64,000 nt of DNA, taken from contig CAMDJH010000003.1 of the NCBI GenBank assembly GCA_945900455.1, positions 5,006 to 69,005 on the forward strand. Reading direction: 5' to 3'. The notes beneath the pieces are model-generated. The model did not search any database. It had not been told where the DNA came from and saw only the letters and a program-made list of their open reading frames with translations. Shown here piece by piece: positions 14,882 to 54,702 of this stretch. Within the stretch, counting starts at the first letter, position 1; every line of letters begins with the position of its first letter. Both the position numbers and the translations under genes were made by a program. The DNA comes from Akkermansia muciniphila (lineage in GTDB: Bacteria; Verrucomicrobiota; Verrucomicrobiia; Limisphaerales; UBA9464).

Positions 14882-15112
14882 GATGATTACGCGATTGAAA
14901 GTGGTCGAACGTCCTCGCAGCGTCAAACAACTCATCCGGTGTCTGAGTAATTGAGTTGCAGACGGCCATCGCCAGACATCGTCTTGTTTCGTGTCATCTG
15001 CTTCATCAATTCCTCCCGCATGAGCCAGAGCACTCCCGAGATCGGGATGAGCGGTCGACCGATATTTACCTCAGATATCGCACGAGTGCTGTTTTTCTGT
15101 TATACAACGCCC

Positions 15113-16091: not shown

Positions 16092-19000
16092 TCAGGGGAA
16101 ACTGTTCAACCGATAGAACTTACTGGTTTCAAGGCCCAGGGGCAGCGGTTGACCAGAATGGACGTCGGGTAATCCCTCCCAGGGCCCAAGGGGTGATGTC
16201 GACGATTCCAGTCGAATATCGGCCGATTCATCCCATACCAGAGTAATCACGCCCGGCCCCAGGACCGATTGCACATTCAAAACCCGGCGGCATTCGACAA
16301 TCACCGGGAACGCGCATTCGATCGATTGTCCGTTTGCGAGCGGGAACCGACAGATGACGCTATTGGTTCCCGATGGGAAGAAGCTGCCCGAAGGGGGCAG
16401 GCAAAGAACTTCATTGCTGGTCACCGTGCACCCTTTGAGCAACCGGACAGGGTATGTCACGAAGGCACCATTGTTCGTCGTACACTGGGTCCGGATCTGT
16501 GTCGGGCAGTCCAGCCGAAACGGTCCGTTTGGATTAAGATCGATCACCACGAAAGGCACCACGCACATGCCCATGTTACCCCTCGCATCGGTGACGGTGA
16601 GCTTAATCAGCCAGGTGCCCACTCCGACGAGAGTGCCGGGAGGCGGGTTCTGCTGGACCTGGAACTCCCGCCCCAAATCACAGTTATCGGAAACCGTGGC
16701 CTGTCTCCTCAAGTCTGGTATCGGCGTCGTGCAACTCGCAACGTTGCTGGCGACGTCGGAATTCAGCTCGCGGCGAATCTCGTTCGTCGGACACTCGATG
16801 TGGGGCGGGGTTGTGTCACCGAAGAATAAGCACGCCGGCCAGGCATAGGATTCGTACTTGTTCCAGCCGTAAACAATGACTCCCACTGGGTGGGAAGCAG
16901 TCAGGGAATGGCGTCCGGCCGTCACCGGAATGCTCGCACAGACAAACGGCGTGCCCGGAATCGGCTGGAAAACGACAGCGGGGAGCACGCCGTCCAAGCG
17001 GAGGCTGGCGACGGCGGCCGCGGGTGACACCACATTGATAAAGTGCTTTAGAAATCCGGCGGCGGCGGTGCAAAAGACATGATTGCTGGTGTAAAGCGCG
17101 CGGCCCGGGACGGTGACCATGAACGGATCCGCATTCTCAACGTCATCGGCATCCGAGCTGTTGGCGTATTGGATTACCATCACGGGTTGAGAACTCAAGA
17201 TCCTCGCGGGCCCGGTGACAGATCGTTCGATAAATCCACCCCGATCCGGGATGTTGACCAAGATGCCATTGACCGAGGCCACGGTGTTGGATTGGGCAGC
17301 CACCACCCGGACCGTGTAGTTCGATCGAGTCGCCAGCGAATGGGTATAGTATTCCACCGTCCAACGATTCACGGGCAGCAGTTGCTCGACCAGATAGTCA
17401 CAAAAGAATGTGGTGGGGGAGCGGATGCTCGCACAACCGTGGCTTCCATATACTCCAATTGGCTTGTCCGATGTGATGAGTGTCCCGGTAAGATCTGCCG
17501 GTGAGCCATTGGTTTCCACGAGCTGATACACATCACCCGTGTTCAGGGAAATTGAATACGAAAACCCCGCATCATGACTCCCGACCACTGCGGAGGGCGT
17601 GATATTTACGGTGGTGTCATCTTCGGTTGCCACCAAGGCGAATTGGCTCCCGTTGAGCTCAGGCACCGCTCCAAAGACGTTGCTATATCCGACCACGATA
17701 TAGCTCGTTCCCAACACTTCCGTGGGCAGAGCCAGGTAACCGTCACTGCTGAACTGGACTTGATCCATGGCATGAACCGAGATCGCGTCCGTTGCCGTGA
17801 CATGAACCCCGCGATTCGTCACCAGGTCATTGAGGTCAGCCAAATCCGCCGCCCGCGGCAGCAGCACATGCAACAGCCCGCTCGGGGGAATCGGCGTGGT
17901 CGGATTGAAGCCCAGGCCGGGGATCTCCACAGTAACCAGCGCGCCAGGGTTGCCCAGCACACAAAGCTGAGGCGCCGGCGGATTGGCCGGATCGGGCGCG
18001 TAGTTTCCGGGGAACGTCAGCCAGAAATCCCGACCTGTGCAGCTGAGATCACACCGTTCTTGCAAGACTCGCACCCGATGATCCTCAACCTCTCCATCCT
18101 CGGCCAGTCCGGTGGGAGACAAGCCCCCTTTGCTGCTGAAGCGGAAGCGAGTATAGGTTGATCCAGCGTGAGCGGCGCCGGGCACTAGAAACGTGAGCAC
18201 ATTCGTGCCGGCAACCAGCGATTGGCCGTTGAATATTTGATCCGCCCCATCCGTCCAGTTGCCATTCTGGGCAAAATCAACCCAGGCATCGAGCCGGCCG
18301 GGGGCACTGGCCACGACTTCCACGCTCGCAAAATGCCCGGGCGCCAGCGCACCCAGGAATCTCACCCCGTCTTCGTCGTCCAATCCACTCGGATTGAAGT
18401 CATCGCCACCGGAGCTCGCGGTTGGCTGACCGTCCGGCTCGACATCCACTCGTTGGCCCAAATAGAAGCCCGTCACCTTGCGATGGCGCGCCCCGTTGCG
18501 GGCAAGCGTCGTCGGATATCCCCCGCCCCCGGCACCCACCACATTCGGATCCTCGGGCGCATCACCAAAATCGAACGGCTCCTCGGCCGTGACTTTTACC
18601 GGATAGTCCTCAACCTCACCGGAGAGCGCCAGGCCATCGAATGAAGGCACGCCAGCAAGCGAGAAGCGAAAGCGTGCAAACGTTGAGCCTTCTTTGGCCG
18701 CGGCCGGGACCTGAAAGGTGAGGGTGTTAGGGCCACTGCCAATTAGAAGGTTGTTGAAAATGAGATCGGCCGGTTCCGCCCACGACCCATTTCGATCAAA
18801 ATCGATCCAGGCATCGAGTCGGCCGCGAGTCGAGGCTGTGACCATGACTAATGCAGTGGCACCCGCTTTGATGGGTGAGAGGAAGGTCACCCCATCCTCA
18901 TCCTTGAGGGCGGGGTTCGGTTGGTTGTCATCTCCCAAGGCACCCGAGTCCGGCTGGCCATCCGACTCCACATCAACGCGACTCCCGAGAAACACATCCG

Positions 19001-21623
19001 GATTGAAACGATGACGGGCGCCATCCCGGACCCGGGTGGTGGGATAGCTCGTTCCCTTTTCCGGTGCGTCGCCAAAGTCTAATCGGGCCGGGTCGGAAAT
19101 CTTGACTTCATAGTCCTCGATTTCACCCGCTTCTGTACTCGATCCGAAGGATTCCACCTTGCCCTCCTGGCTGAGTCGGAAGCGCGCGAAGGTTCGGCCC
19201 GGTTTTGCCGAGAGGGGAATCGGGAATTGCCAATCCTTCAATCCCGCAGGCTGCATCCCATCGATGACATGCTCATCGGCATCCAGCCAGTCTCCGTCGC
19301 CGTTAAAATCGATCCAGGCGTCGAGTTGTCCATTGCCGATGGAACTATTGAGGGTCACGCGCACCGTCACGAGCTCGCCCGGAACGAACGGGGTCAAAAA
19401 CTGGACACCATCCTCGTCGGTCCCGTCGCCGGTCGCATCCGCATTGGGTTGGCCGTCCGGTTCGGTGTCGATCGACTTTCCCAAGACAAACTGTGGATTC
19501 ACGCGCTGGCTGGCCCCGTTGTGTGCCAAGAGAGTTGGATACGGTTGATCCGGCGCATCGCCGAAATCGAACCGGACCGGCTCGGCAATGCTGACCTGGT
19601 AATCCTCGACTTCGCCCAACTGATCGCTCGGGCCGAAGAAATCAACCGGCCCCTTCTGGCTAAGCCGAAACCGGGCAAACGTAAAGCCCGGCTTGGCATC
19701 AAGCGGTACCACCACATCAAAATCCGTCGCGCCGGGGGAGACAAACGTATCGAGTATATGCTCACCGGGGCCCGACCACTTGCCGTCCGCGTCCCAGTCC
19801 ATCCACGCGTCCAGTTTGCCGGTACCAATCGAGCTCAGGAGGTTGACGCGAATCTTCATGGTCAAACCCGGGACCAGTGCTGTGAGGAACTGGACGCCAT
19901 CCTCGTCGCTCCCGTCCCCAGTGGCATCGGCATTCGGCTGCCCGTCCGCTTCGGCATCAACCTTTCCTCCCAGGAGAAATTTCTGACTGATGATCTGGCT
20001 GGCACCGTTGTCGCCCTTCAGCGTCGGATAGGGCCTATCCGGTGAATCCCCGTAATCCCGAGTTACGGGAGCCGCCGTAATGATCAATGGGTAATCCTCA
20101 ATCTCTCCCTCCTGGTCCGAAATCCCGGCAGGGTCACCCACTCCATCGCGACTCAACCGGAAGCGCGCGAAATTGGTGCCGAGTCTTGCGACGGTTGGAA
20201 TTGGGATGAGCAATGAGTTAGTGCCCTTGAGCAGATTAAACACGAACGATTCACCCGGTTCACCCCAGACACCATTCCCATCGAAATCGATGAAGATATC
20301 CAGAACGCCCCCGGGATTAGCGTGAACGGTGTCGGTTAGAACCACTTGAGCGACGGCATCGAGTCCGGGAATGAGAAGCCCCGCAAAAGTCACGCCATCC
20401 TCGTCCGCTCCATCACCGCTGGCGACGGCATTGGGCTGGCCATCCGGTTCGCCATCGACGGTCGCCCCCAAGCTATAACCCTTGAGCACACGCTGAGCCG
20501 CGCCGTTGCTATTGCGCAATGTCGGATACGGTTTATCCGGAGCATCTCCGAAATCAAAGATGGTGGGGGCGGGATTCACCGAGACATTGATGGTCTTGGT
20601 GACAACACGGACCCCGTCGTTGATGCGCAGGGTGATTTGGGTATCTCCTGCCTGACCGGCCGCGGGAATAATGGTCAGCGTGCGCTGGCCGGATCGACCT
20701 TCCAGGATCAGTCCGGCATTCGGCAGGAGCCGACGATCTCCACTGGCGACGGTAGCTTCCAGCTTATCAACAACCGTATCCACATCGGCAATCTGGAAAA
20801 AGATCGGTCCGCTCGAACTGTCCTGCTGAATTGTCTGGTCGGCAATATCATGGATCGTCGGAGGAAATGGACCTTCCGTGGTCAGATTGGCAAACTCGGC
20901 ACTCGTCAAATCGCCCACCGCTCTCAAACCGCGGCCGACCGCCAAGCCGACAAAAGGGCCTCCCTGGCCGGGTAATCCTCCCAACCAACCCTTGGCATTG
21001 CCATCACCCAGCAGGTCCCACTGGATTCCGTCGTGCGACAAATAGGCTCCAACAACATCGCCGTGACGTTCCAGACGCAACCAAGCCTCGGGGTACTGCG
21101 GACTCGGCCCGTCGGTGGGAGGCATCAAAATATCCTTCGCACCGGCCCTCAAACGCTCCTGCAACCGCACATCGTTGTCGCCGAACAAATTGGAAGGTGT
21201 GATCCCTTCCGGAGTCGCCCGAACATAGAACATTCGACTATCGTCACTCAGGGTTTCGCGCAACATCAAACCAGCCTTAGAGCTCGGCGAACTGGGCTCA
21301 AGTGATAGGATCTGCACTCGCCAATCGAAATCGCCTGGCGTATTGAGAAAATGAAACGTGAAGTTGTCCTGGCTCCCGCCGATGTCCACCCCGCCGCCTA
21401 CCACCAAGTACGAGTTCCTGGTATTGCCTAGTGAGATTTTGCCTTGAACCCCGAATTGACCGATCTGCGTGGATCCAAAATCCTGTGCGAATACGAAGTG
21501 GGGCGCGCTCAGAAGCAGGAGCCACGTGGCACATAAACCGCGGAGCACCGTAGCGTGAAGTGCAGTTCTGGTGGCTGATCGTGTAGGTCCGACCCGCGCT
21601 TGACACATTGCGACGAAGTTCAT
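16092..21623 (-). CDS. 1,843-aa secreted protein: ConA-like module, Ig-like region, 5 tandem GEVED modules, IgGFc-binding-like region, 2 HYR-like domains
   Basis: The ATG at 21623 is followed by a signal peptide '...LLLLSAPHFVFAQD'. Five ~165-aa repeats each begin 'GDAPD.PYPT' and end 'GE(I/V)ED(Y/H)' (about 18070-20575). 'GRDFWLTFPGNYAP...DLTGTLITSDKPIGVYGSHGCA...YLVEQLLPVNRW' is IgGFc-binding-like. 'TTPPHIECPT' marks HYR-like domains (about 16300-16825). Confidence 0.85.
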   Translation of the reverse strand: MNFVAMCQARVGPTRSATRTALHATVLRGLCATWLLLLSAPHFVFAQDFGSTQIGQFGVQGKISLGNTRNSYLVVGGGVDIGGSQDNFTFHFLNTPGDFDWRVQILSLEPSSPSSKAGLMLRETLSDDSRMFYVRATPEGITPSNLFGDNDVRLQERLRAGAKDILMPPTDGPSPQYPEAWLRLERHGDVVGAYLSHDGIQWDLLGDGNAKGWLGGLPGQGGPFVGLAVGRGLRAVGDLTSAEFANLTTEGPFPPTIHDIADQTIQQDSSSGPIFFQIADVDTVVDKLEATVASGDRRLLPNAGLILEGRSGQRTLTIIPAAGQAGDTQITLRINDGVRVVTKTINVSVNPAPTIFDFGDAPDKPYPTLRNSNGAAQRVLKGYSLGATVDGEPDGQPNAVASGDGADEDGVTFAGLLIPGLDAVAQVVLTDTVHANPGGVLDIFIDFDGNGVWGEPGESFVFNLLKGTNSLLIPIPTVARLGTNFARFRLSRDGVGDPAGISDQEGEIEDYPLIITAAPVTRDYGDSPDRPYPTLKGDNGASQIISQKFLLGGKVDAEADGQPNADATGDGSDEDGVQFLTALVPGLTMKIRVNLLSSIGTGKLDAWMDWDADGKWSGPGEHILDTFVSPGATDFDVVVPLDAKPGFTFARFRLSQKGPVDFFGPSDQLGEVEDYQVSIAEPVRFDFGDAPDQPYPTLLAHNGASQRVNPQFVLGKSIDTEPDGQPNADATGDGTDEDGVQFLTPFVPGELVTVRVTLNSSIGNGQLDAWIDFNGDGDWLDADEHVIDGMQPAGLKDWQFPIPLSAKPGRTFARFRLSQEGKVESFGSSTEAGEIEDYEVKISDPARLDFGDAPEKGTSYPTTRVRDGARHRFNPDVFLGSRVDVESDGQPDSGALGDDNQPNPALKDEDGVTFLSPIKAGATALVMVTASTRGRLDAWIDFDRNGSWAEPADLIFNNLLIGSGPNTLTFQVPAAAKEGSTFARFRFSLAGVPSFDGLALSGEVEDYPVKVTAEEPFDFGDAPEDPNVVGAGGGGYPTTLARNGARHRKVTGFYLGQRVDVEPDGQPTASSGGDDFNPSGLDDEDGVRFLGALAPGHFASVEVVASAPGRLDAWVDFAQNGNWTDGADQIFNGQSLVAGTNVLTFLVPGAAHAGSTYTRFRFSSKGGLSPTGLAEDGEVEDHRVRVLQERCDLSCTGRDFWLTFPGNYAPDPANPPAPQLCVLGNPGALVTVEIPGLGFNPTTPIPPSGLLHVLLPRAADLADLNDLVTNRGVHVTATDAISVHAMDQVQFSSDGYLALPTEVLGTSYIVVGYSNVFGAVPELNGSQFALVATEDDTTVNITPSAVVGSHDAGFSYSISLNTGDVYQLVETNGSPADLTGTLITSDKPIGVYGSHGCASIRSPTTFFCDYLVEQLLPVNRWTVEYYTHSLATRSNYTVRVVAAQSNTVASVNGILVNIPDRGGFIERSVTGPARILSSQPVMVIQYANSSDADDVENADPFMVTVPGRALYTSNHVFCTAAAGFLKHFINVVSPAAAVASLRLDGVLPAVVFQPIPGTPFVCASIPVTAGRHSLTASHPVGVIVYGWNKYESYAWPACLFFGDTTPPHIECPTNEIRRELNSDVASNVASCTTPIPDLRRQATVSDNCDLGREFQVQQNPPPGTLVGVGTWLIKLTVTDARGNMGMCVVPFVVIDLNPNGPFRLDCPTQIRTQCTTNNGAFVTYPVRLLKGCTVTSNEVLCLPPSGSFFPSGTNSVICRFPLANGQSIECAFPVIVECRRVLNVQSVLGPGVITLVWDESADIRLESSTSPLGPWEGLPDVHSGQPLPLGLETSKFYRLNSFP

Positions 21624-24600
21624 GAGGTCCTCCCGTTCGGTGGATTCAACCCTTCGAGCGGCGATGGGGTGAGCCTGAGTTGCTGTTGGGAATCAAACGA
21701 ATGCAAAGGCTGTGGTCCAACCGAAAGGACGGCGGAACTATCCCAGAGCACAGCGACGGTGGGCGGCGCTGCAATAGCGCGCGTCCAGGTCATGGGCGAA
21801 ATCAAATGGAGATCCGGCCGCAACACCAGCGGGGCCAGGTCACGGCCGGCGGCAGGCACCAAAAGGGTCGAGCCGAGCCCGACATGAACAACATGGATCA
21901 CTTCGAATCCGACGTAGGTCACTGGCTGGAAACCCACGCTTGAGAACAGCGTCGGTGTCTGCACCGTAACAGCGTTCTGGGCGACATAGATCAGCTCATC
22001 GGCATTTGCATCCCCTGCTTCGACGCGCAAGGCAGTGGTCATCGACGGCGTCACGCTGACTTGATCGTCAAACCCACTGGCACGAATCTGTTCAACATTC
22101 GCGGCCGGTAAAACCTGATTGCCGTTAGAATCCGACGCGGAAGTCGAATCACCCAGGGCAATGGTCATTCCGCTCGACGCGAAACTGAAGTCCAGGCGGT
22201 CGACACCTTCACCGGCCAACTCGATGAGAGTGTCGGTCCCCCACGCACCTCGGAACATATAGACATCATCGCCCTTTCGCCCCACTAGGATATCCGATCC
22301 ATCGCCGCCTTCCAAAATGTCGTCACGGTCCGTACCGACGAGGATGTCATTGCCTCCTTCGCCGCGGAACAGAACGTTGACAGTAGCGACACCAGCGGCT
22401 GTAAAGAAGTTGTTGTTCGGGCCACCGGAAATCTCGACGCGAACAAGGTTCGTAAAGGTATCCACTCCGGAAGGGGTAAACAATTGCGTGTTCGAGAGAA
22501 TGATATTGCCATCAATCACCTCGATCAAAACATCGTCCCCCGTGCCGCCATTGATGATATCACTACCGGCACCGCCCGTAATCTGATCATCTTTCGATCC
22601 GCCCTTGAGGGTGTCATCTCCATCACCGCCAACGAGAATCACAGGCCCGAGGACGAAGCCAGAGGCGAGTAGAATGTTCGCGCTTGGGCCACCAATCAGG
22701 GTCGCGCGTTCAATCGAGACAAGCGTGTCGGTTTCCGCACCGATCGTTAGCTGGGCATTGGTGACGCTCATATCGGCATCACGCGAGGCAAAGACTCGAT
22801 CCAGCCCGCTGGCGCCACCTCTCAGGGTATCATTTCCAAGCCCACCGTCGAGTGTCACGGGTCCCAGCGAATAATTACTGGCATCCAAAACATTCGGACC
22901 AGGACCACCCGTCAGCTCCGCCCGCTCGATTTCATCCAAGCTGTCGACTTCGGAGCCAATCCTCAGACTGGCATTCTTTAAAACAAAGTCTGCGTCCGCG
23001 TGTTCAACCAACGTGTCAACGCCGTCACCGCCAATCAGCTTATCCACACCAGGACCTCCAGTAAGGCGATTGTCGAGCACGTTGCCGATGAGTGTATCGT
23101 CGAGCGAAGCGCCTATGACGTTTTCGACGACATCCCCGGCTGCGAGGATCAGCGTGAGAGCGGGTCTAGGCGGAGCGGGGAATGTCGGCCCAGGGGCAGG
23201 CGCGACGTTGAAAGCCACCACTTGCGGACTGGCGAGCCCCAAGTCAACGACGACGCCCGTCGTGCCGGTCTCCAAGAAGTCGAGGGTATCCGTGCCATCC
23301 CCTGCTCTTTCTTCAATCCGATCGACACCATAGGTATCGCCATAGACATGGACATCATCGACGTCGAATCGGTAGGTGTCGTCGCCCGGTCCTCCGGCTA
23401 GGATGTTGTCGAGCTTGTTACCCCGGAGAACATCATCCCGAGATGTTCCCACGATATTTTCGAATCGGTTTCCCAGCCCGAGTGTCAGCGTGAGGTTCGG
23501 GTTCAACACCTGCGCGAGGCCGCGCGAAAGGTCCAACTGTACTCCGAGGGTTTGGGACGCGGAGAAGTCCAGCGTGTCATTCCCGCCCGTAAGCGGCTCG
23601 CTTAACGTGTCCAAACCCAACGCAGTGTCCGTGTCGAACAAATAGAGGTCATTTCCAGATCCGCCACTGATGAAATCATTGCCGGAGCCTCCCTCTAGAC
23701 GATCCTCTCCAATGCCACCGAAAAGAAAATCGTTCCCAGCATTGCCAAGGAGCATGTCATTGCCCGCACCCGCACTGAGAAGATCGCCCCCCGATCCACC
23801 GTCGAGCAGATTATCGAGGGAGTTTCCAATCAAGATGTCGGCGCCCAAACCACCAAACACATTTTCAAAAGCGAGATTTCCGAACACCGGCAAATAGATC
23901 AGCGAGGTGAGTGTGAGGTTTAGGTTGATGTTGACGTTTTGGTTGAGACTGTTCGAGAGATCAAGACTGACCGCATTGGTGCTGCCCCGGAAATCGAGAG
24001 TGTCGATACCGCCTTCCACATCGGCCGTTTCGACGAGAATGTCCGAACCTAACGCTGCGCTGGTGTTAAATATATAAGTGTCGTCGCCACGGCGCCCGCT
24101 CAGCGTGTCGTTGCCAGGTCCCCCCGTGAGATGATTGTCGAGGGAGTTGCCCAGGAGGATGTCGTTGCCGGCCCCACTGATCACATCTTCAATCCCATCG
24201 CAGGACAACAAGTGCAGCGAGAGCCGCCCAGGCACAACGATTTGCAGATGACCGAGAGTAAGATCAACAGTCAGACTTGCGGCAGTGCTGGAGAAATCCA
24301 ATGTATCCGTCCCGCCACCACCCACCGACTCGAGAATCCGATCCGATCCCAGAGCGAAGTCTGGGTTGAACGCATAGCGATCATTCCCGTCGCCACCGGC
24401 AAGGGTGTCATCTCCGTCGAATCCTTCCAGCCGATCATTCCCGGCATTCCCAACCAGCACATTGCCAGCGGCATTGCCATAGAGACGATCGTTCAAAGCA
24501 CTGCCGAGGACATCTTCGACCGCCGTGGCGGAAGTGAGCACCAAGTTCAAATTGGAATTGATAAATTGAGGGATCGCCAAGCCAAGCCTCACGGTCACAG

Positions 24601-42394: not shown

Positions 42395-42428
42395 CCGTAA
42401 TGTTCAACGAACCGCCCTCGTTCAAAGC

Positions 42429-45400
42429 ATGTTACCCAAGAAGCCGTCTTTCCGTCTCCCCCTGACATTCTGGGGACTCGCCGTAGCGATGGTCCTGCTC
42501 GCGGGCCGACCCCCGCGAGCGGGCGCGCAGGCTCCGGGGGTCTTTCGCGAGCTGTTCACGGGCTTCAATCGCGCGAACAGTCCGCTTTGGCAGCTAACGA
42601 ATGATATCCGCTTTCTCGCCAACACGCCGACCTCCACGAACATCCTCGCAACCTTCAGCGCACCCCAGGCCGCCGGCGAAGATTACGGTCAGCGTGTGCG
42701 CGGCTTTCTCACCGCACCGACGACCGGCAACTATACCTTCTGGATTTCCAGCGATGAAGTCGGCCAGCTTTTCCTGGGCACCACCGAAAATCCCAGATCA
42801 AAACACCTCATCGCCGTCTGCGATCCGCGCGCCCAACCCGGCAACTACACCACGCATGCCGGCCAGCAATCGTCGAACATCGTCCTCCAGGCCGGACACC
42901 GTTATTACATCGAGGCGCTGCACGGCGAGGCCAACCTGATCGACCATCTTTCGGTGCAATGGCGGCTGCCGAACACGGTGGTCGAGTCGCCAATTCCCAG
43001 CACACGCCTCCAATACGAAATCGCACCGCTCCTCACCTCCACGCCAACGAATCGGGTCGTCGAAGAGGGCCGTCCCGCCGTCTTCCAAGCCGAAACGGCC
43101 AATTTCCTCCCGCAAAATTTTCGCTGGCAGCGTGGCAGCTCGGACATTCCCGGCGCGACGAACCCGAGTTACACTTTGTTCGCAGCCACACTCGCTGATG
43201 ACGGCGCGCGCTTCCGCGCGTTTGTCAGCAATCGCCTCGGCGCCACCAATACCCCCGAAGTCACCCTGACAGTACTGCCTGACACGAACGCGCCGCTCGT
43301 TGTCAGCGTGGTCGCTCTCAGTCAAACCAATCTACTTGTGACATTCTCCGAATCGGTCGCGATGGCGTCGGCACTCGACACGGCCAACTACGCCCTTGCA
43401 GGCGCGGCCATTCAAGGCGCCGCCTTTGGAACCGACGCGCGGACGGTATCGCTCCGGACTTCACCCCTGGTCTTTCAAAACAACTATACTCTCCTGATCT
43501 CCGGCGTTCAGGATTCAGCCAGCCAGCCGAACACGATGGCGTCCGCGCGTGTGGGGTTCACGGCCCGCGAGTTCAACCCTCAAGCCATCGGCCCTCCGGC
43601 GCAGCCCGGATCGATCGCGATCGTGACCGGAGGTGTAAACGTGGCCGGAAGCGGAGTGGATGGGGGCGAGCGCTCGGATCAGTTTCAATTCGGTTACCAA
43701 GCGCAATCGGGCGATTTCGATCTCAAAGTTCGGGTGCAGGGATTGGACTTCACCGACCTTTGGGCCAAGGCGGGATTAATGGCCCGCGAGAGCCTCGATT
43801 CAAACAGCCGTTTCGCCGCCACGTTCGCCACGCCGACGCTGGCGGGGACCTTCTTCCAGCATCGCGCGGCGACGGGTGGCCTCACGACGAGTGCCGGTTC
43901 CGTTTCCGGGAGCTTCCCCGACACTTGGTTGCGGTTGCAGCGAGTGCGGGAACTTTTCAGTGGCTACGCCAGCATGGACGGCCAAAATTGGACACACCTC
44001 GGTTCCGTTGCGATCGCGATGTCCAACCAGCTCTATTTCGGCTACGCCGTGTCGAGCCAGCGCACGAATCAGACGGCGACCGCACAATTCCGTGATTTCA
44101 GCACAGTGACCGGCGGAACGATCGACACGGGGGCGAGGACGCGCGAGACACTCGGTCCATCCAGCCGCAAGACGGGCCTGGTGATTTCGGAAATCATGTA
44201 TCATCCGCGCGACATGCTTCTTGGTGTCCATCCCGCTGAACTCGAATTTGTTGAGTTGTTCAACTCGACTCCCTCCTACGAAGATATCAGTGGCTACCGG
44301 CTTGCCGGCGACATTGATTACACGTTTCCACCGGGAACGGTCCTCGGTGGCGGCCAATTTCTGGTGGTTGCCCGGTCCCCGGAGGATCTGCAGACCGTAT
44401 CCGGAATTGTCGGGGCACTTGGCCCGTTCACGAACAATCTCCCGAACGACGCCGGCCGCGTCCGCCTGCGCAATGAAAGCGGTGCGGTGCTGTTGGAGGT
44501 GAACTATTCCGCCAAGTTCCCGTGGCCCATCGCGGCAGACGGCGCGGGTCATTCGCTCGTGCTGGCACGTCCGTCCTTCGGCGAAGGGCAACGCGCCGCC
44601 TGGGCGGCGAGCGACGCTCTGGGGGGCTCGCCCGGCGGACTGGAGCCGTTCGGTGTCGAGCCCTTGCGTCCCATCATGATCAACGAATTCCTCGCGCATA
44701 CGGATGCGTCCGCGCTCGATTTCATTGAACTCTACAATCACAGTGACCAACCCGTGGATCTCGGCGGCGCGTGGCTGTCCGACAGTACGGTCACGAACAA
44801 ATTCCGCATCCCCTCACCCACGACCCTCACCGCGCGCGGTTTCGTCTCGTTTGATCAAAATCAACTCGGCTTCTCGCTCAACTCGGCCGGCGAACGAATC
44901 CTGCTGGTAAACTCGAACCAAACGCGGGTCGTCGACGCTGTCGCGTTTGAGCCGCAGGCGCAGGGTGTTTCCTCCGGCCGCTTTCCCGATGGCGCACTCG
45001 AAATACGAATTCTGTCCACACCCTCGCCCGACTCGGCCAACCCCGGAACCCTCGCGCACGACATCGTTATCAACGAGATCATGTACCACCCGATCTCCGG
45101 GGATCGCGACGACGAATTCGTGGAATTGTACAACCAGGGTGAGACGTCCGTGAATCTCGAGGGCTGGCGTTTCACCGACGGGATCGACTTCACGTTCCCG
45201 CCCAACACCTGGATCGCGGCGGGCGGCTATAGGGTCGTTGCTCGAAACCAGCTGCGGTTGCTGGCGAATTACTCGACCCTGAATTCGAGCAATACCGTCG
45301 GCAATTTCCGTGGCAGCCTGCGCGACGCCGGAGAGCGCTTGGCACTGGCCAAACCGCATCCGTCCATTCATGCCGACGATCCAATGAATGTTACCACAAA

Positions 45401-48400
45401 CATAATTTACGTGGAAGTGGATGCCGTGGAGTTCGGAGTGGGGGGGCGTTGGGGTAAATGGGCCGACGGCGGCGGCAGCAGTCTGGAGTTGATCGACCCG
45501 CGCGCCGACAATCGCCTCGCGCCGAACTGGGCTGACAGCGATGAATCGGCCAAGGCACCCTGGACCTCCATCGAAACGACCGGCGTGCTCGACAACGGCG
45601 GCGACCAACCGACTGCGCTCCACGTCCTCCTGCTCGACGAAGGAGAGTGCTTGCTCGACAACGTCGAGGTCTTCCGGTCTCCCGCCGGCGGCAACCTGAT
45701 TTCCAATCCCACGTTCGAGGCTGGCACCAATGGCTGGTCGCTTCGCGGCAATCATCAGCGGTCGTCGGGAGAGACGACCGAAGGTTTCAACAGTTCGCGC
45801 TCGCTCCACATCCGGGCCTCCTCGCGGGGGGACATCGGGGCCAACAAGATTTCCATCAACCTCAATGGTCTGGTCGCTGGACAGACCGCCACCCTTCGCG
45901 CAAAAGCCCGTTGGTTGCGGGGTTGGCCCGAGTTGCTCCTGCGGTTGCGGGGGAGTTGGCTCGAAGCGACTGATCGCATGATCGTACCCCACAACCTCGG
46001 CACGCCCGGCGCGCCCAACAGCCGACTCGTCGCCAACGCCGGCCCGGCCATCACCGACGCGCGCCACGCTCCCGCTGTGCCAGCGGCCAATCAGCCGGTG
46101 GTTGTGACCGCGCGCGTCAGCGATCCGGAGAATGTCACTTCGGTGGTCGTGAATTACCGCCTTGATCCCGCCACCGGCCTGACCGCATTACCGATGAATG
46201 ACGCGGGGACCGGCGGCGATGCGTTCGCCGGGGACGGGATTTTTAGTGGAACGATTCCGGGCCAAGCCGCTGATCGAATCATCGCGTTCTTCATCGAGGC
46301 GACCGACGGGGCATCGGCCACGGCGCGTTTTCCGGCGTCACGAAACGACAACGGCCCGGCGCGCGAGTGCCTGATTCACTTTGGAAGCCCGCAACCCGCG
46401 GGTACGTTTGGCACCTATCGGTTCTGGATCACTCAACAATCGATCACGAATTGGATCAATCGCGAAGTCCTCAGCAATGAGCCAATTCCTGGCACGTTCG
46501 TGTACGGCAATGAGCGCATCATTTACGACGCCGGCGCGCACTACTCCGGCAGCCCAGCGCATCAGGATCAGGCCGCGCCCGACTTCTCCCCCGTCGGCAC
46601 GCCCAACAATTACACGCTCGATATGGCGAAGGACGATCGCGTGCTCGGCACCGACAACTTCAACAAAATCCACGGGCCGGGGAACAATCATCATGATGAC
46701 AATACGCTCCAGCGCGAAACCATCGCCTACTGGATGGCGCGACGGCTCGGGCTGACCGAGTGCCACAAGCGTTATGTGGCGATGTACATCAACGGCGAGC
46801 GCCGGGGCCGCCTGATGGAGGACACGCAGGTGCCGAACAACGATTACATTGAATCCGCCTTTCCGGACGACGCCAACGGTGATCTCTACAAGCTTTCAAT
46901 CTGGTACGAATTCGGCACACCCGGTGCCGCACCGCAGGTCCTGTCCGCCAACGGGCTCTCCGAGTGCAATCTCAACAATTACATCACGGTCGCTGGCGTG
47001 AAAAAAAGGGCTCGCTATCGCTGGAACTGGCAGGGCCGCACGGTTCACGGCACCGCGAACGACTACACCAACGTCTTCGCCCTCATTGATGCCGCGAACA
47101 CTCCCGTCAATGGGCCGTTCACCCAGAACCTCGAGGCGGTTGTCGACATCGAGCAATGGATGCGCACATTTGCGTTGGAGCACGCATTGGGGAACTGGGA
47201 CAGCTTCGGCTACCGTAATGAGCAAAACATGTTCGCCTACAAGCCGGAACGAGATCGCTGGAAGCTGCTCATCTGGGACATCAACATCACCTTCGGCGGC
47301 GGCACCCGCGGGACGCCCGTCGCCGTCACCGACGACTTGTTCGAGTTCGACGCATCCAATGGTCCGATGGCGAACATTTACAATTCACCGCAATTTCGCC
47401 GCGCCTATTACCGGGCGCTGCGCGACATCATCGATGGCCCACTCCTCAACGCCAACGCGGATCCGGTGCTGGACGCGCGGTTCGCCACCTTCGCAACGAG
47501 CGGCGTCCACGTTTCGCCGCCGGACGCGATCAAAACCTGGATCGGCCTGCGCCGCGCCTATATTCAATCGCAGTTGGACGCTGCGGACACGGCCGCGTTT
47601 GCCGTCACCACGCCGGACGGCTTGGTCACCAACAACAACGTGGTGCAAATCAACGGCACGGCCCCATTTGCGATCAAGACCATCAAAATCAACGACATCA
47701 CGCGCCTCGTCACGTGGACGAGCCTGTCGAACTGGACGGTGCGGCTGCCGGTCGACCCGATGCAAAGTGAGAATTCCATCGTGGGCTACGACTCACGTGG
47801 ACAGCCCGTGCCGGGCGCCAGTGAACAGCGCGTGCTCCATTACACCGGATCCGTCTCGCAACCCGAGGACACGCTTGTTCTCAATGAAATCCTGTACAAC
47901 TCGCCCTCGCCCGAATCCTCCTTCATCGAAATCTACAACACCTCAACCCACTTTGCCTTCGACCTGTCCAACTGGCGCTTGAATGGCGCGGGTTTTTCGT
48001 TCCCCGAGGGTTCTCTCATTACCAACGGGCAGTTCCTGCTCGTCGTGGGGAACCGCGCTGTGTTCTCGCAAGTTTATGGGAGCAGTAACGTGATTGCGGG
48101 CGAACACCAAGGCCGGCTCGATGCGGGCGGTGAAACGTTGACCCTGGAACGGCCCGTCCTGGTCACCCTGACAAATGGCACGATCGTCACAACCAACCGA
48201 GTCTATCGGACCGTGGACAAAGTACGCTACGAGCCCGATTTACCCTGGCCCACACTGGCGAACGGCACCGGCCCGTCGCTGCAACTCACCGACCCGACCC
48301 AGGACAACAGTCGCGTGAGCAACTGGCGCGCCGGGAGCACCGACGCCGCGGCGATCAACGCGACACCTGGCGCACGGAATCTCTTCATCGAGTCCCTACC

Positions 48401-49547
48401 GCCCTACGATCTGCTCTGGTTGAATGAGCTCCAGTCCGACAACGCCAGCGGCATCATTGACAACTTTGGTGAACGCGAGCCGTGGATTGAACTCTACAAC
48501 GCCGGTACCAACACACTACCGCTCGAGGGCTATTTTCTCGCCGACAATTACACCACGAACCTGACCCAGTGGCCGTTTCCCCCGGGAAGCCGCATCGCGC
48601 CCGGTGAATTCAAAATTGTGTGGGCCGACGGCGAACCCGGTCAAACGGGCGGGACGAATCTGCACACGAACTTCCGTTTGAATCGCACGACCGGCGCAGT
48701 CGCCCTGGTGCGGATCGTCAAGAGTCAACCCCAGATCACCGACTACCTGACGTACCCGAACCTTGGCGCAAATCTGTCTTATGGCGCGGTCCCGGACGGT
48801 CAGCCGTTCCACCGGCAAGTATTGAATTTCGTCACGCCACGCACGAAAAATGTCACACCGACGGTTGCCCTTTTTATTAACGAATGGCTGGCGGGCAATA
48901 CGAATACGCTAAGGGATCCCGCGGACTCGGATCCCGAGGATTGGTTCGAACTCTACAACGCTGGATCCTCCCCCGTGGACCTGACGGGTTATTACCTGAC
49001 CGATACCCTGGCGAACCCGACGAAGTTTAGAATTCCGAACGGCTATGTCATGCCGCCCGGCGGCTTTCTGCTCATTTGGGCTGACGAGGAACCAGAACAA
49101 AACCATAGCAACCGAATCGATCTGCACGTCAATTTCCGACTCGCGAGCGGAGGTGAAGTGATTGGTCTATTCTCCCCCACCGGCGGCGCGGTTGATCAAA
49201 TCGCGTTCGGACCGCAGACCAACGACGTCAGTCAGGGTCGCTATTCCGACGGGGCGGCACCGATCTATTTCATGACGACCCCAACGCCGAGGGGACCCAA
49301 CACTCTTGCCGGCGGCAATACCGCCCCGCAGTTAACCGGCATCAGCGTGACCGCGGATGGAATGGTCGCACTCACGATGCAAACGATCGTCGGCAAAACC
49401 TACCGGTTGGAATACAAGCACAGCCTGAACAATCCAGGCTGGATCCCCATCGCACCGGACCGGTTGGCTCTTTCCGACAGTCTGACCCTCCATGACGACA
49501 TCGGTGCAAGCACTCAGCGCTTTTATCGCCTTGTCATCCTGGAGTAA
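42429..49547 (+). CDS. 2,372-aa secreted PA14 / Ig-like / ConA-like / 6x lamin-tail-domain (LTD) / CotH-domain protein
   Basis: ATG followed by signal peptide '...[19 protein letters not shown]'. PA14-like '[28 protein letters not shown]...[10 protein letters not shown]' at about 42640-43010. LTD openings are '[10 protein letters not shown]', 'IMINEFLAH', '[10 protein letters not shown]', 'LVLNEILYN', 'LWLNELQSD' and 'LFINEWLAG', each followed by 'F(I/V/W)ELYN'. CotH core '[20 protein letters not shown]...[17 protein letters not shown]' at about 46350-47560. Confidence 0.85.
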
Positions 49548-49591
49548 AACATGACACCAACAATGAGTGCTTTCCGTCACCAATCGCCACC

Positions 49592-50305
49592 ATGAATCCG
49601 CACGCACGCACCACCTCCACCTCCGCCTTCACCCTGATTGAATTGTTGGTTGTCATTGCCATCATCGCCATTTTGGCCGGCATGATCTTGCCGGCGCTCA
49701 CTCGAGCTAAAGCCAAGGCAAAACAAACCCAATGTGCGAACAACCAAAGGCAGCAAAGCCTCGCGTACATAATGTATACCGCTGACTACAGCGATTATTA
49801 TCCGATGCAACGTGATTGGCCGGCAGTGGGTGGTAAAAATGGTACGTACACCATTTTTGTGGCGGCGACCAACCGGCCGCTAAATGCGTATGCCCCAGCC
49901 CTGAGCACGTTTAACTGCCCCAGTGATCGCGGAGATGCCATTTTCGCGATATCGAACTGCTTTGGTGTTTACGGAAATAGTTATCTGACCGAATGGGGGC
50001 TGGACGCTTGGCGGGTCAAACACGTCACCGGAGATCCAACCGCGCCCGCCGGCAGTTCCCTGGCAACCCCCATCCGGGGCAGCGAGGTCGCCAAAGGTCC
50101 AACCACAAAAATCATTCAAGGGGACTGGGTCTGGCATCCCAATCGCGGCGTAACCGATAACCGCAGTGTATGGCATAACTACCGCGGAAAGAATCTCACA
50201 ATGATGTTATTCGGTGATGGCCATGTTCAGGCGTACCGTTTTCCGGATGAATTCAAGAACTGGAATTCCACACCCCTTCCGGACGTGAATTTCCTGTGGT
50301 GGTAA
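49592..50305 (+). CDS. Pseudopilin-like protein (prepilin-type N-terminal domain plus degenerate H-X9-DG C-terminus)
   Basis: '[12 protein letters not shown]|[24 protein letters not shown]', with C-terminal '[12 protein letters not shown]'. It starts 44 nt downstream of the CotH-protein stop on the same strand. Confidence 0.85.
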
Positions 50306-50324
50306 GGGGCAATGCGGACACCCG

Positions 50325-51092
50325 TTAGTTGCGGGGCACACCGATGGTGACTTTCAGCCGTTCAAAATCCCGGTCCAATGGCTTCCGGGCAGGTGCATCA
50401 TAGGCGTGTTTTCCCGTGTCCGGTTCCACCCATTTATAGATCTCAGCATGGCCGTCGGCGAAGCTCAGATTTGCACCCTTGCTGTGCCGGTCGGACGGGT
50501 CATTCTGCCAAACCTTGTTATCGACCTGGATTGCGAAATAGGTGTCTTCGAGGGTCTTGCTGCTTTCGTCGATAAACACCAGAGCCTGCGACGGCGATGG
50601 AAACGCGATGTCACCATGCTTCCGATAAACGGGGTACTTTGGGTTGACCCAATCCACATCACTATTCATTTGACCGCTCATCGAGAAGCTTCGGACCCGC
50701 TTCAGCGGCCTGCCACCAAGCTTAAAATCATCCGCAGGACACACATAGATGCCCGGAGCTCCATTATAAGGAAAGAGAAGGCCCCTCTTGATAGCGTTAA
50801 CGTTCGTCGCTCCCGGGAGCGAATTAACGTCATTCGCGCCGGGAATCCACGAATTCGACGTGCCCCCAATGTAGTTGGGCACGAGGCTGTCGCGGTTATC
50901 CCCGGTATACGTGAACCAAGCCAAACCTAATTGCTTGCCATTCGAGAGGCACGCGATGCTCAAGGCCTTGGACTTTGCCTTCGCGAGGGCCGGCAGGAGC
51001 ATCCCCGCCAGAATGGCGATGATGGCGATCACAACGAGGAGCTCAATCAGGGTGAAACCCTTCCCAGGTCGGACAATTGCAGATGTTTTCAT
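50325..51092 (-). CDS. Pseudopilin-like H-X9-DG protein (paralog A)
   Basis: The ATG at 51092 gives '[12 protein letters not shown]|[24 protein letters not shown]'. The C-terminal '[19 protein letters not shown]' is an exact H-X9-DG motif. The upstream part of ORF 50325-51155 is not needed. Confidence 0.9.
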
Positions 51093-51306
51093 TTTTCTCT
51101 CGGCTCGTGTGGTCAAGTGGCCATCCTTATCGTCGATCCCGTACGGTTTTGGCAACAGCGAAGATGGGCTCCCTGATCCGTGCGGTGCATCCCGATGCTG
51201 TCGGAATGACCACAGAAGGAAACAATGGAAACGAAGGCAGGCAAAGACTGGAAGAATCTTCGTTCTCTTGGTTTGCTTCTGTTCAAAGAGATTTCAGAAA
51301 AAGTAC

Positions 51307-51343
51307 AAAAAGTGACAGGTTCAATTGAGTGGTTCAATTGAGT
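51307..51343. repeat. Half-copy of a palindromic intergenic repeat, with a 13-bp tandem duplication
   Basis: aaaaagtgacaggttcaattgagtg (51307-51331) is identical to 59018-59042. ggttcaattgagt is duplicated in tandem at 51318-51330 and 51331-51343. Confidence 0.6.
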
Positions 51344-51380
51344 AAAACAATTTGTCGCCACCGACTATTGGGGAAAGAGA

Positions 51381-51476
51381 ATCGCGGATAAACGCCGATC
51401 GACACAGATTCCAGGCCCCTTCTCTTCCGCGTCCATCCGGGTTCATCCGCGGTTCATTCGCGGTTCTTCTTCTCGG
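51381..51476. repeat. Short intergenic repeat of the 'ICV..R.SA' type common in PVC genomes
   Basis: The reverse strand reads 'aatctgtgtcgatcggcgtttatccgcgat' (NLCRSAFIRD when translated). On the plus strand there is an imperfect 11-bp tandem gttcatccgcg / gttcattcgcg. I recognise this as a recurrent non-coding repeat family from memory only. Confidence 0.4.
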
Positions 51477-51878
51477 CTTCCCTCTCTTCCCCGGCAGATG
51501 AAGGATTCCTGACCCAACCGGGGCGAAGGCTGTCTTGGTCTTTTTCAGGCCGAATCCAATAACACTCTCACGGAATTCGCTCGAACGCGGCGCCAAGTCG
51601 CCATCCGTCACCGTCGTAGGCCGGAGTAACCCCGACTGGAGAATTCCGCCGGTCTTAAAAAACCGCCCCCACCTGCTCTATCCCTTCCTATCCATCCGCC
51701 GATTTGGGTGGGCTCCGGAAGTGATCCCCTTTTCGCGAATCACGCCCCGGCGGACGGAAGTCTGCTCTCCGGCCGAGGGAGCGGGGGATTCCTCGCGTAA
51801 GAACGTCCTTCGCCGACGAGTGGGCGAAAGCCGTATCCGGGCGCTCGACTATCGTGGCTCCCAGGCCGTTAGCGAAGT

Positions 51879-52673
51879 TTACCACGCACCACGATAGATC
51901 CCACTTTGCGAATAGATCCAGTAGGTTTGGCTCATGAGTTCAATTCGCTTCCAAGCAACCGACCCGTCGATCAAGGCGACGTTGCCGCCAGTGGCTCCGA
52001 TACCCTTGGAGGTTTGCCCCTCCGAGGGCATGATCCAAGCGGAGCCTTTGCGCTTAACCGCTCCGCTTTTTGTGTGGGGAGCCATGACGTTCGGGGGATA
52101 ACCGCCGCCCATATTTCCCCAGAGGTTCGCGTCGGCAAACAAAGCCAATTGGTCAACCGGAACGATCTTAGGGTTGTTCCGCTCGGGCAAATCCGTGGTC
52201 TTGATCGGCGATTTCCAGCCGGACTCGGGCGGCATGACGCGCCCACCCAGGTAATGATAGCTGATGTAGTAACCGATGCCGGTCTGGAATCGAGTGGTCG
52301 CTGTATCGGTAATGCCCGGAATGCTAAACGGGTATACATTCGGGCAATCGAACACCTTGTCGCCATATTGGTTGCTGATGCTGCGGTACATGGATGATGC
52401 AATACTCAATGTATATGAATCCCCGCTATCGCGAATACCGTTAAAAAGCTTATCTCCATTATCGAGCGCGTACACGTTACACGCCAACGTCATCTGGCGC
52501 AGATTGCTCAAACAATTGGCGCGCCGGGCTCTTTCCCGGGCACCCGCCAGTGCTGGCAGCAGCATCCCCGCCAGAATGGCGATGATGGCAATCACGACCA
52601 GGAGTTCGATCAGCGTAAAACCGCCGATGGAAACGCGTGTTCGACCGTACGGATAAAACCGAAGGCGTTTCAT
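51879..52673 (-). CDS. Pseudopilin-like protein (prepilin-type N-terminus; divergent C-terminus '[11 protein letters not shown]')
   Basis: '[18 protein letters not shown]|[42 protein letters not shown]'. Confidence 0.85.
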
Positions 52674-52740
52674 AATGTTTTAACTTTCATTCCTAACGTG
52701 AAGCGGGCCGTCAACACGCGGCCAGCGGTTCGCACACCCA

Positions 52741-53508
52741 CTAGTTGCGAGGAATCGCGATGGTGACCTTCAACCGCTCAAAATCCCGGTCCAAAGGCGT
52801 CTTGGCAGGCGCGTTCCATGTGTGTTTTCCCGTTTCGGGCTCAACCCACTTATAAATCTCGGAATGACCGTCGGCGAAACTCAGATTCGCACCCTTGCTG
52901 TGCCGGTCGGATGGATCATTCTGCCATATCTTGGCATCGACCTGAATCGCAAAATAGGTGTCTTCGAGGGTTAGGGTACTTTCGTCGATAAAGACGAGCG
53001 CCTGCGACGGTGATGGAAACGCGATATTCCCGTGCTTCGTATAGATCGGATACTTTGCGTTGACTCCCGGCACATCACTGTTCATCTGACCGTTCATCGA
53101 AAAGCTACGCACTCGCTTCATCGGTCTGCCTTTGTACTTGAAATCATCCGCTGGACACACATAGATACCGGGGGCTTCGTTATACGGATACAGTATCCCC
53201 TTCTTGATCGCGTTAACGTTCGTAGCGCCCGGGAGCGAGTTGACGTCGTTGGCACCCGGAATCCACGAATTTTGCCCACCGCCGATGTAGTTGGGCACGA
53301 GGTTGTCGCGGTTATCTACGGTATACGTGAACCAAGCCAAACCCAATTGCTTGCCATTCGAGAGGCACGCGATACTCAAGGCCTTGGACTTTGCCTTCGC
53401 GAGGGCCGGCAGGAGCATCCCGGCCAAAATGGCGATGATGGCGATGACTACAAGGAGCTCAATCAGCGTGAAGCCCTTTCCCGGGCGAACGATGGCAGAC
53501 GTTTTCAT
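52741..53508 (-). CDS. Pseudopilin-like H-X9-DG protein (paralog B of 50325-51092)
   Basis: The ATG at 53508 gives '[12 protein letters not shown]|FTLIELLVV...', and the C-terminus is '[19 protein letters not shown]'. The first 63 residues are identical to paralog A. Overall identity is roughly 85% by eye. Confidence 0.9.
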
Positions 53509-53620
53509 GAATTTTCTCAGCACGTGTGGTAAATCTGCCTCCCTTATCGTCGATCCAAAGAGGTTTACGCAACAGAATACGGTGCACACCCGGTCCACCC
53601 TGCTTTCGCCGAGGCGGCGG

Positions 53621-54496
53621 CTATTCCTGAACGAGGGCATAATCCCGGTTTCGGGGCCCATACCCCTTGAAGCGCGTCACGCGAGCGGCGTGCCCGTCGA
53701 AAAATCCAACCGCGGCCGTTGGCTCGCTGCGGTAAGGTTCATGGAAATTCGCGTTGCCATCGAATCCGTAGCCGTAGCCTTCGATGCGAGTGACCCCCGG
53801 CTTCAGCGGTTCACAATTGACGTCCCAGAAAGGGAACTCCCAGAAGATCACAAACTTAGCAGCTTCTCGAATTCCGACCGCCTTGTTGGCAATGTTGGAA
53901 TTGGGGTTCACGGTAGCCCGATCCCATTTGGCCGGCACGCCCGCGGTGTTGAAACAGTAACTCGCCCCCGCTATCGGGTCGCCCCAGATCGTGGGCTTCA
54001 GTTGCAGGAAGGACCCAAACCCTGGAATCGTACCCGCCGCACGCCCCTTATCGGAAGGGCATTTCCACACTTCATACGTCCGGAGGTACCCATTGAGGGG
54101 GCGCCAGTCGATTTTACCGGCATACCTTACGGGATCATTCACCTGTGCGGGAATTCCACCCTGACCAAAATCCCGATCAGCCGGGGACTGGGCCGAGGCG
54201 TCCCCCTGCCAGTACTCATAAAAAATATCGTTGTTATCGGGTAGGTAGAGTTGCGCGGCGACAACGACCTGGTGCTGGTTGGACAGGCAGACCGCCCCCG
54301 TCGCTTTCTTGCGAGCTCGGCTCAGAGCGGGCAGCAGAAGGGAGCTCAGGATCGCGATGATCGCAATGACGACCAGCAGTTCAATCAATGTGAACCCGCC
54401 GAAGGGACTTCGCGAAGTGCGAACGGATGAACAGGTGTCGGCAGCCCGCCCGCCAGATTCTCCCTGCCCCGTCGGATCCCGAAAAGTGCAGATCAT
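53621..54496 (-). CDS. Pseudopilin-like protein (prepilin-type N-terminus, 'FFDGHAARV' C-terminus)
   Basis: The ATG at 54496 gives '[34 protein letters not shown]|[31 protein letters not shown]'. The leader is unusually long at 34 aa. The upstream part of ORF 53621-54748 is not needed. Confidence 0.8.
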
Positions 54497-54702
54497 TTTG
54501 TATCGGTAGCATTGCAAAGATTTCTGCCAAGGAATTTGTTGAGTAACGGCACCTGGCAAAGCCGGCGGCGGAGATGCCCTATCACACCTAACCGAGTGAA
54601 ACCCCGCTTTGATGCGTTGCGTTCCCCGATGTCTTCCCTTTAGTTTTCCCCCTGGCAACTCCTGACAACTCTTTTTCCCACCGCGTGAGCGATGCTCAAA
54701 TA

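Follow-up and report, generated by a model that had tools for sequence, protein, structure and literature searches.

Introduction

Giant RTX adhesins such as LapA of Pseudomonas, MpIBP of Marinomonas and SiiE of Salmonella are exported by type I secretion systems (T1SS). In Verrucomicrobiota, a phylum abundant in soils, lakes and guts, the construction of the cell surface is little understood. The present work deals with a region of about 38 kb (positions 16092-54496) within a window of 64,000 nt from contig CAMDJH010000003.1. The region carries the genes for a giant protein of 6,850-6,924 aa, for a GEVED-domain protein encoded directly behind it (the partner), for a protein with PA14, LTD and CotH domains (the CotH protein) and for five pilin-like proteins (pp1 to pp5). 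The giant and its partner were found to constitute a conserved, translationally coupled two-gene operon of Verrucomicrobiota. The region as a whole is probably a mosaic of three independently inherited units, which became neighbours by lineage-specific juxtaposition: the giant/partner operon, the CotH gene with one pilin-like gene behind it in this genus, and the pp array.

The giant resembles the T1SS-exported RTX adhesins in its size of several thousand residues, its acidity, its few cysteines, the lack of a Sec signal, the calcium-binding beta-sandwich repeats, the position of the RTX repeats near the C-terminus, and the short non-repeat tail. It differs in that no genes for an ATP-binding cassette (ABC) transporter, a membrane-fusion protein or an outer-membrane protein adjoin it or recur in related loci, in that a LEPR-XLL motif and a propeller-like module stand in place of a LapA-type retention module, and in its obligately coupled gene for a Sec-exported partner. 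We know of no such partner for adhesins of the LapA, MpIBP or SiiE type. Proteins with a LEPR-XLL motif (NF012209), which occur in Planctomycetota, Verrucomicrobiota and others, share with the giant the LE(P/D)RxLLS motif and, in many homologs, the propeller-like module and the RTX repeats; the homologs recovered measure 1,100-3,400 aa, whereas the giant is far longer and has a coupled partner.

The partner, in turn, is comparable to fibrillar adhesins of the CshA type, in which GEVED is a stalk domain (PMC10952558). It shares with them the GEVED stalks (five copies), a signal peptide and Ig-like domains. It differs from them in its host, a Gram-negative member of the Planctomycetota-Verrucomicrobiota-Chlamydiota (PVC) group, and in ending with an FN3-like module, here called FYRL; neither the CshA NR2 ligand-binding head nor an LPXTG anchor was found in it.

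A further parallel comes from Omnitrophota, also PVC bacteria, where genes for giant surface proteins lie near prepilin-type signal-peptide genes and are preceded by loci resembling type II secretion systems (T2SS) or type IV pili (T4P) (bioRxiv 10.1101/2023.11.21.568195). This precedent makes it reasonable a priori that all eight genes studied here form one co-regulated surface apparatus, as the sequence-only reading of this DNA had proposed, with pilin-like proteins that would act in a T2SS/T4P-like machine encoded elsewhere and export or anchor the large proteins. However, the machine genes that define the Omnitrophota loci, gspD/E/F among them, are absent here, the pilin-like genes are generic paralogs, and their adjacency to a giant is not conserved.

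A conserved operon of giant and partner

The partner gene (16092-21623, minus strand) encodes 1,843 aa according to the table of open reading frames (ORFs). The giant gene, on the same strand, extends over 21620-42394 when read from the first TTG (6,924 aa) and over 21620-42220 when read from a GTG (6,866 aa). Its TGA (21622-21620) and the ATG of the partner (21623-21621) overlap as ATGA at 21620-21623, an arrangement of translational coupling. Both this overlap and a gap of 44 nt between the CotH stop at 49547 and the pp1 start at 49592 had been described in the sequence-only reading, and the coordinates agree with it. The inventory of three large proteins and five pseudopilin-like genes likewise stands by the ORF table and by Pfam and NCBIfam, including the summed length of 11,139 aa for the partner, the giant from its TTG and the CotH protein.

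The same junction was found in other genomes. Four partner homologs of the same architecture that were looked up (L006-L009; the fetched loci carry L numbers) each follow a giant gene immediately, in the same orientation and overlapping it by 4 nt. Their giants measure >4,782, 6,401, 6,083 and >5,539 aa, respectively, and contain RTX, SdrD_B, Calx-beta and CarboxypepD_reg domains. When a profile built from the last 560 aa of the partner was run against GTDB, with each species represented by a single genome, it yielded 59 loci, 58 of them verrucomicrobial and from 47 assemblies. As determined by tblastn, a homolog of the giant's C-terminal half lies immediately upstream of the partner in every one of the 41 loci with an upstream giant match, and the giant reading frame ends beside the partner gene in each (41/41). 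In approximately 38 of these loci the two genes either overlap or are separated by no more than about 130 nt, the script having returned no clean junction for three (L014, L024, L030); 16 loci have ATGA as the overlap and 5 have GTGA. Downstream, there is no recurring third gene, the top families being present in 4 loci only and generic in kind (DUF1549/1553/1501, ABC transporters). Since the junction is kept and no further gene recurs behind it, the conserved unit consists of exactly two genes.

Homologs of all three large proteins are almost exclusively verrucomicrobial (subdivision 3, Limisphaerales, Pedosphaera, 'Verrucomicrobiales'). The nearest database matches to the partner are 44-48% identical, with no close ortholog among them, and orthologs at 40-50% identity sit downstream of a giant. 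In ten of the 47 assemblies the pair is present in two or three diverged copies, for instance three in CAUJJW01 and two each in JADLFD01, CAZSOV01 and JACQFQ01. Two cultured strains, Limisphaera sp. VF-2 and 4302-co, belong to the set. Several metagenome-assembled genomes in the locus table are labelled 'Akkermansia muciniphila' and one 'Bifidobacteriaceae', labels that look wrong by gene content. At one locus (L008, 15791-24549) the operon is followed by genes for a glycosyltransferase, exosortase EpsH, EpsI, a sugar transferase and an Amuc_1100-family protein, a neighbourhood of the PEP-CTERM/exopolysaccharide type that was not seen at the other giant/partner loci.

In the literature on LEPR-XLL, GEVED and verrucomicrobial giant genes, no description of this operon was found. 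The novelty, a phylum-wide operon of a giant plus its partner, is modest but real. A giant with an obligate coupled partner in at least 47 assemblies, two cultured Limisphaera included, provides a testable handle on the assembly of surface fibres and on the LEPR-XLL motif.

The giant protein and its partner

The giant has four candidate start codons (TTG 42394, GTG 42310, GTG 42220 and TTG 42172), which give the range of lengths quoted above. A LEPR-XLL motif (NF012209, 22.9 bits against a cutoff of 17) is located at aa 67-87 of the TTG-started ORF; the stretch reads FDLEALEPRILLS and comes immediately after GTG 42220. When started at this codon, the protein begins with MRKDAPFDLEALEPRILLS. 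We favour GTG 42220 because the motif stands right behind it; the gene caller picked 42172 on the sister contig. The spacer between the giant and the divergent CotH gene amounts to 208 bp (42221-42428) with the GTG 42220 start and to 34-256 bp over all candidate starts. The upper limit of 118 bp given earlier for this spacer therefore has to be replaced by that range, as the start of the giant is ambiguous.

The detected domains of the giant, i.e., 19 RTX stretches, Calx-beta, SdrD_B and CarboxypepD_reg, all fall within aa 3451-6866, and the Pfam scan revealed no domain in aa 1-3450. Many RTX proteins headed by LE(D/P)RxLLS have in common with the giant a propeller-like module (aa ~335-910 and ~1120-1450 of the giant), and in these proteins precomputed Pfam annotation marks propellers of the Sortilin-Vps10/BNR type. 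Between this module and the blocks of Calx-beta, SdrD_B, CarboxypepD_reg and RTX, about 2,000 aa carry no annotation. There are 51 RTX nonapeptide matches from aa 1799 to 6658 of 6866, all but one of them from aa 3682 on; the last starts at aa 6658 and leaves a tail of about 200 aa. The protein is acidic and poor in cysteine (isoelectric point (pI) 4.26; 13 Cys in 6,866 aa), and no Sec signal was detected. The domain and signal scans thus agree with the earlier description of a giant with RTX and Calx-beta arrays and without a Sec signal.

One subfamily of the giants terminates in E[FY]S[FY] (E[FY]SF in L033, L038, L041 and L067), an ending reminiscent of C-termini that combine acidic and hydrophobic residues in some substrates of type I secretion. 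Near the C-termini of the giants, behind the RTX repeats, there is a conserved motif, YDAxGLxxTQ...GFxPV...GFExV (window 21623-22400; also L013, L021, L025, L051, L055 and others). The N-terminal halves diverge fast. A homolog search with the giant's N-terminus recovered only fragments and proteins with the propeller-like module, a PDB sequence search gave no match for the N-terminal half, and self-BLAST of the giant for internal repeats gave nothing usable.

The partner starts with a Sec signal peptide. It further contains a ConA-like/DUF1349-like module (aa ~46-206), five GEVED domains (206.9 bits, Pfam), an IgGFc_binding-like domain (1294-1586) and HYR, and is closed by the C-terminal FN3-like FYRL domain. 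Either the ConA-like or the IgGFc-binding-like domain might serve as its ligand-binding head. The predicted model of its C-terminal half is a string of beta-sandwich domains (predicted local distance difference test score, pLDDT, of 75.6). A fold search with this half returned only generic beta-sandwich chains (TM score ~0.13), and a PDB sequence search with the partner returned no match.

The missing Sec signal, the late RTX repeats, the low pI, the few cysteines and the shared C-terminal motif of the giant, together with the GEVED stalks and the beta-sandwich model of the partner, suggest that the pair likely forms a calcium-stiffened surface fibre or adhesin. The giant would exit the cell without Sec, via a type I-like route that uses a C-terminal signal and whose genes would lie elsewhere in the genome, and calcium would fold and rigidify it outside. 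The partner, made in step with the giant and exported by Sec, would join it at the surface, where its place might be the tip, the base or the anchor.

Several points speak against the fibre or adhesin reading. No gene for a cognate ABC transporter, membrane-fusion protein or outer-membrane factor lies in the 64-kb window, and the DNA downstream of the related giant/partner operons has no recurrent T1SS gene. The LEPR-XLL class is defined by its motif alone. Moreover, the Sec-independent, type I-like export of the giant is something that we purely infer, and the same holds for the association of the partner with it. In the two flanks scanned with Pfam (L011 and L020), the ABC systems are limited to an importer of the sugar type and a single MsbA-like half-transporter. 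A LapA-type N-terminal retention module had no Pfam or NCBIfam match in aa 1-3450 of the giant.

Two further candidates were rejected. Two-partner secretion (TpsA/TpsB) does not apply to a partner in which no Omp85-type beta-barrel with POTRA domains was detected and whose model is a string of beta-sandwiches, and the domains defining polymorphic toxins are absent. The operon might instead encode an S-layer-like coat or a surface system for offence or predation, with a partner that acts in processing or targeting. This would account for the quick N-terminal divergence, which is expected under diversifying selection, and for the two or three diverged operon copies in several assemblies; giant PVC proteins have also been associated with attachment to prey and attack on cell walls. 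However, neither giant nor partner yielded a catalytic domain of a toxin, peptidase or glycosidase, all the domains detected are of kinds that form stalks or bind, and no immunity-like small gene recurs downstream. We regard such a function as very unlikely.

The CotH protein and the synteny of its locus

The CotH gene (42429-49547, plus strand) encodes 2,372 aa in the ORF table, with a Sec-type signal peptide, PA14, a DUF1349/ConA-like module, six LTD domains, CotH and a C-terminal FYRL. The CotH domain (PF08757) scores 84.6 bits against a gathering score of 23.8 at aa 1419-1683, and the protein appears to be a member of the CotH kinase-like family. Its family, distinct from the giant/partner unit, is widespread among Verrucomicrobiota and large (463 matches at E<=1e-10), and the CotH protein constitutes an independent unit.

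The closest CotH ortholog, 87% identical at the nucleotide level, is found on three contigs (L001-L003), where CotH and pp1 keep the same 44-nt gap. One of these (L002) also retains the M48 peptidase gene (14951-15967, plus strand), which is the left synteny anchor and the left edge of a variable slot that in the window holds the giant/partner block; the match covers window 15112-15965 with 90% identity. Between M48 and CotH, L002 has 5.2 kb with an Asp-protease-like gene, a P-type ATPase gene and a 61-aa ORF, whereas the window has the 26.4-kb giant/partner block. Homology to L002 returns at window 42401, 28 nt before the CotH ATG, and ends at 50181 inside pp1, so that synteny with this relative has three breakpoints (window 15965-15967, 42401 and 50181). 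The content of the M48-CotH slot differs between the window, L002/L003 and L001.

This variability could also be explained if the M48-CotH block of the window were a mobile island, acquired recently and hence missing from the relative. An intact IS630-type transposase gene (DDE_3 and HTH domains; 10706-11743, minus strand) 4.3 kb to the left of the slot would fit such an origin. On the other side, the block edges show no tRNA, integrase, flanking direct or inverted repeats or shift in G+C content, and the operon family is indigenous to Verrucomicrobiota. A mobile island therefore seems rather improbable to us, if still the most plausible of the other explanations; it is also compatible with the three-unit mosaic.

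More distant CotH orthologs (47-65% identity) were examined at 17 loci, namely L004, L005 and 15 metagenomic loci (L069-L083). Within 10 kb of them there is neither giant nor partner (0/17), and a single one (L070) has an N_methyl gene nearby, of another kind. Several have, in front of CotH and in the same orientation, a gene for a protein of 680-870 aa that also ends in FYRL (L005 7947-9989, with a weak Big_5 match; L070 2-2341; L071 2-2221; L073 8879-11497), a gene with no counterpart in the window. Conversely, an LTD/CotH gene was found near the partner in one of the 58 verrucomicrobial loci, 35 of which have at least 3 kb of downstream DNA.

The pilin-like genes

The starts of pp1 to pp5 were trimmed to the methionine preceding the motif, the untrimmed ORFs spanning 49592-54748. 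On the plus strand, pp1 (49592-50305) encodes a prepilin-type N-methylation protein. The other four are on the minus strand: pp2 (50325-51092) and its duplicate pp4 (52741-53508) are prepilin/H-X9-DG paralogs, and pp3 (51879-52673), with a weak DUF1559 match, and pp5 (53621-54496) are prepilin-type paralogs. The N_methyl models PF07963 and TIGR02532 are above their cutoffs in all five proteins, and a DGH tail is present in pp1, pp2, pp4 and pp5. With TIGR04294 (H-X9-DG), pp2 scores 19.2 bits (cutoff 19) and pp4 18.0, and the PF07596 (DUF1559) matches in pp1 and pp3 are slightly under the cutoff. The GspG/H/I/J equivalog models remain below their curated cutoffs, the best being GspG with 40 bits vs. 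88.85, over the N-terminal helix only. At 88% amino acid identity and about 82% nucleotide identity over 845 bp including short flanks, pp2 and pp4 appear to be the products of a recent tandem duplication. In their prepilin-type N-terminus and tandem arrangement the five genes resemble the large DUF1559/H-X9-DG paralog family of PVC bacteria (PF07596, TIGR04294), of which they are ordinary members with no substantive difference. A T2SS or T4P locus was ruled out for them, as they are generic paralogs and the machine genes are absent from the window.

In the 87%-identity relative, the only one to retain the pp1-CotH pairing, pp1 is 95% identical and truncated before the DGH tail (at window 50181); the 270 nt behind it contain a forward-strand ORF and show no match to pp2. 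The genome of Planctopirus limnophila measures about 5.4 Mb. DUF1559 is its largest paralog group, with 68 copies (PMC10632474). Downstream of the partner genes, 5 N_methyl genes were counted in 316 kb, compared with 2.6-4.0 expected either from that DUF1559 density or from all the fetched loci (10 per 1,214 kb), i.e., without enrichment. The idea that the adjacency of pseudopilins to this locus is more than chance thus did not hold, N_methyl genes near partners being at background level.

Modules shared by the partner and the CotH protein

The sequence-only reading had also noted that the proteins on either side of the giant share two modules, and this was borne out. The ConA-like modules of the partner and the CotH protein are 34% identical over 161 aa (E 2e-15), and of all the ORFs in the window, only those of CotH (49290-49544) and the partner (16095-16300) carry the C-terminal FYRL module. 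Its consensus is L.W....G..YRVE.K..L....W..L......QRFYRV. The predicted structure of FYRL is an FN3/Ig-like sandwich (pLDDT 89.5), and the model has no PDB match at E<=1e-3.

Both modules turned out to be generic. The ConA-like module is a widespread annotation within the CotH protein family. The FYRL profile matches 48,269 cluster representatives at E<=1e-3 and 7,020 at E<=1e-10, and multi-copy internal repeats are among its matches in the wider database. In 1.2 Mb of verrucomicrobial loci, FYRL was found in 45 ORFs, always at the extreme C-terminus (45/45), and about 11 of these are bystander genes. Since they are so common, the shared modules are better taken as a mark of large secreted verrucomicrobial proteins than of mutual partners.

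GEVED proteins of other phyla terminate in C-terminal domains of the type IX secretion system (T9SS) or in a hydrophobic helix plus basic tail. FYRL may be a phylum-specific sorting or anchoring domain, given its place at the extreme C-terminus, where GEVED proteins of other phyla carry tags of the T9SS or PEP-CTERM type. Along this line, the Sec-independent LEPR-XLL/RTX giant and the Sec-exported GEVED partner could constitute a two-component fibre of an undescribed kind, in which FYRL would be the sorting or anchoring signal for some outer-membrane export or attachment system, and such a system might use the expanded prepilin-like family. We consider this combination improbable.

One apparatus or three units

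The reading of the eight genes as one apparatus has several observations in its favour besides the Omnitrophota precedent. The two proteins with Sec signals, partner and CotH, require some outer-membrane route; they have the ConA-like and FYRL modules in common; the same-strand gap of 44 nt between CotH and pp1 is retained in the relative; and in L007 partner, N_methyl and LTD/CotH genes adjoin. Against it, the giant/partner block is missing beside CotH in the nearest relative and in 17/17 distant CotH loci, the N_methyl genes beside partners are at background frequency, the relative's pp1 is truncated and followed by sequence unlike pp2, and FYRL is found in about 48,000 cluster representatives as well as, within 1.2 Mb of related loci, in about 11 bystander genes. 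In addition, among the ORFs of at least 100 aa scanned in the window there is no T1SS gene, no GspD/E/F, secretin or platform protein and no prepilin peptidase (PilD), in agreement with what had been reported earlier, and the pp scores are far under the GspG/H cutoffs. Adjacency alone is no proof of a secretion apparatus, because PVC genomes often contain pilin-like neighbours and proteins with modules in common. Thus, of the single surface apparatus proposed, giant and partner remain as a conserved, coupled, adhesin-like pair, whereas the CotH and pp genes are not linked to this pair in related genomes. A check of co-occurrence, which the same source had suggested, gives a divided answer: a giant frame closing beside the partner in 41 of the 41 loci with an upstream giant match, a giant at CotH in 0/17 and LTD/CotH at a partner in 1/58. 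In our opinion, it is very doubtful that all eight genes serve one apparatus.

The preferred explanation, a mosaic of three units, follows from the absence of the giant/partner block in L002, the absence of a giant from all the distant CotH loci and the lack of N_methyl enrichment at partners, which show the units to be independent; the CotH unit and the pp array are then not components of the giant/partner unit. It has to be set against the order partner, N_methyl, LTD/CotH in the distant genome L007 (the same locus as L055), where the LTD/CotH gene is a distant 1,685-aa paralog downstream of the partner and a generic N_methyl gene stands between the two. This locus would be compatible with a loose association of the three gene types. 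It also counts against the mosaic that the flanks of the other loci reach 10 kb, while giants span about 18 kb, and that the LTD/CotH counts cover the downstream side only.

Genomic setting

The gene order of the region was found to be identical in contigs from two other ENA samples, which shows that the layout is not an assembly chimera. Scans for promoters and terminators in the divergent spacer, in the pp array and at the left boundary gave counts at the level of shuffled sequence and are therefore uninformative on operon structure. Among the sizeable ORFs outside the region, one of 529 aa (57189-58778, plus strand), to the right of DegT, and three of 184, 276 and 229 aa around 5908-8032 have no Pfam match. 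Judging by their domain content, the genes flanking the region appear to be housekeeping genes, with no secretion machine among them. On the left, they encode PEPCK, an OPT transporter, FKBP, an enolase-superfamily enzyme, an MFS transporter, the IS630-type transposase, Fpg, a copper amine oxidase and the M48 peptidase; on the right, a LarA-like protein, DegT and PQQ-propeller proteins.

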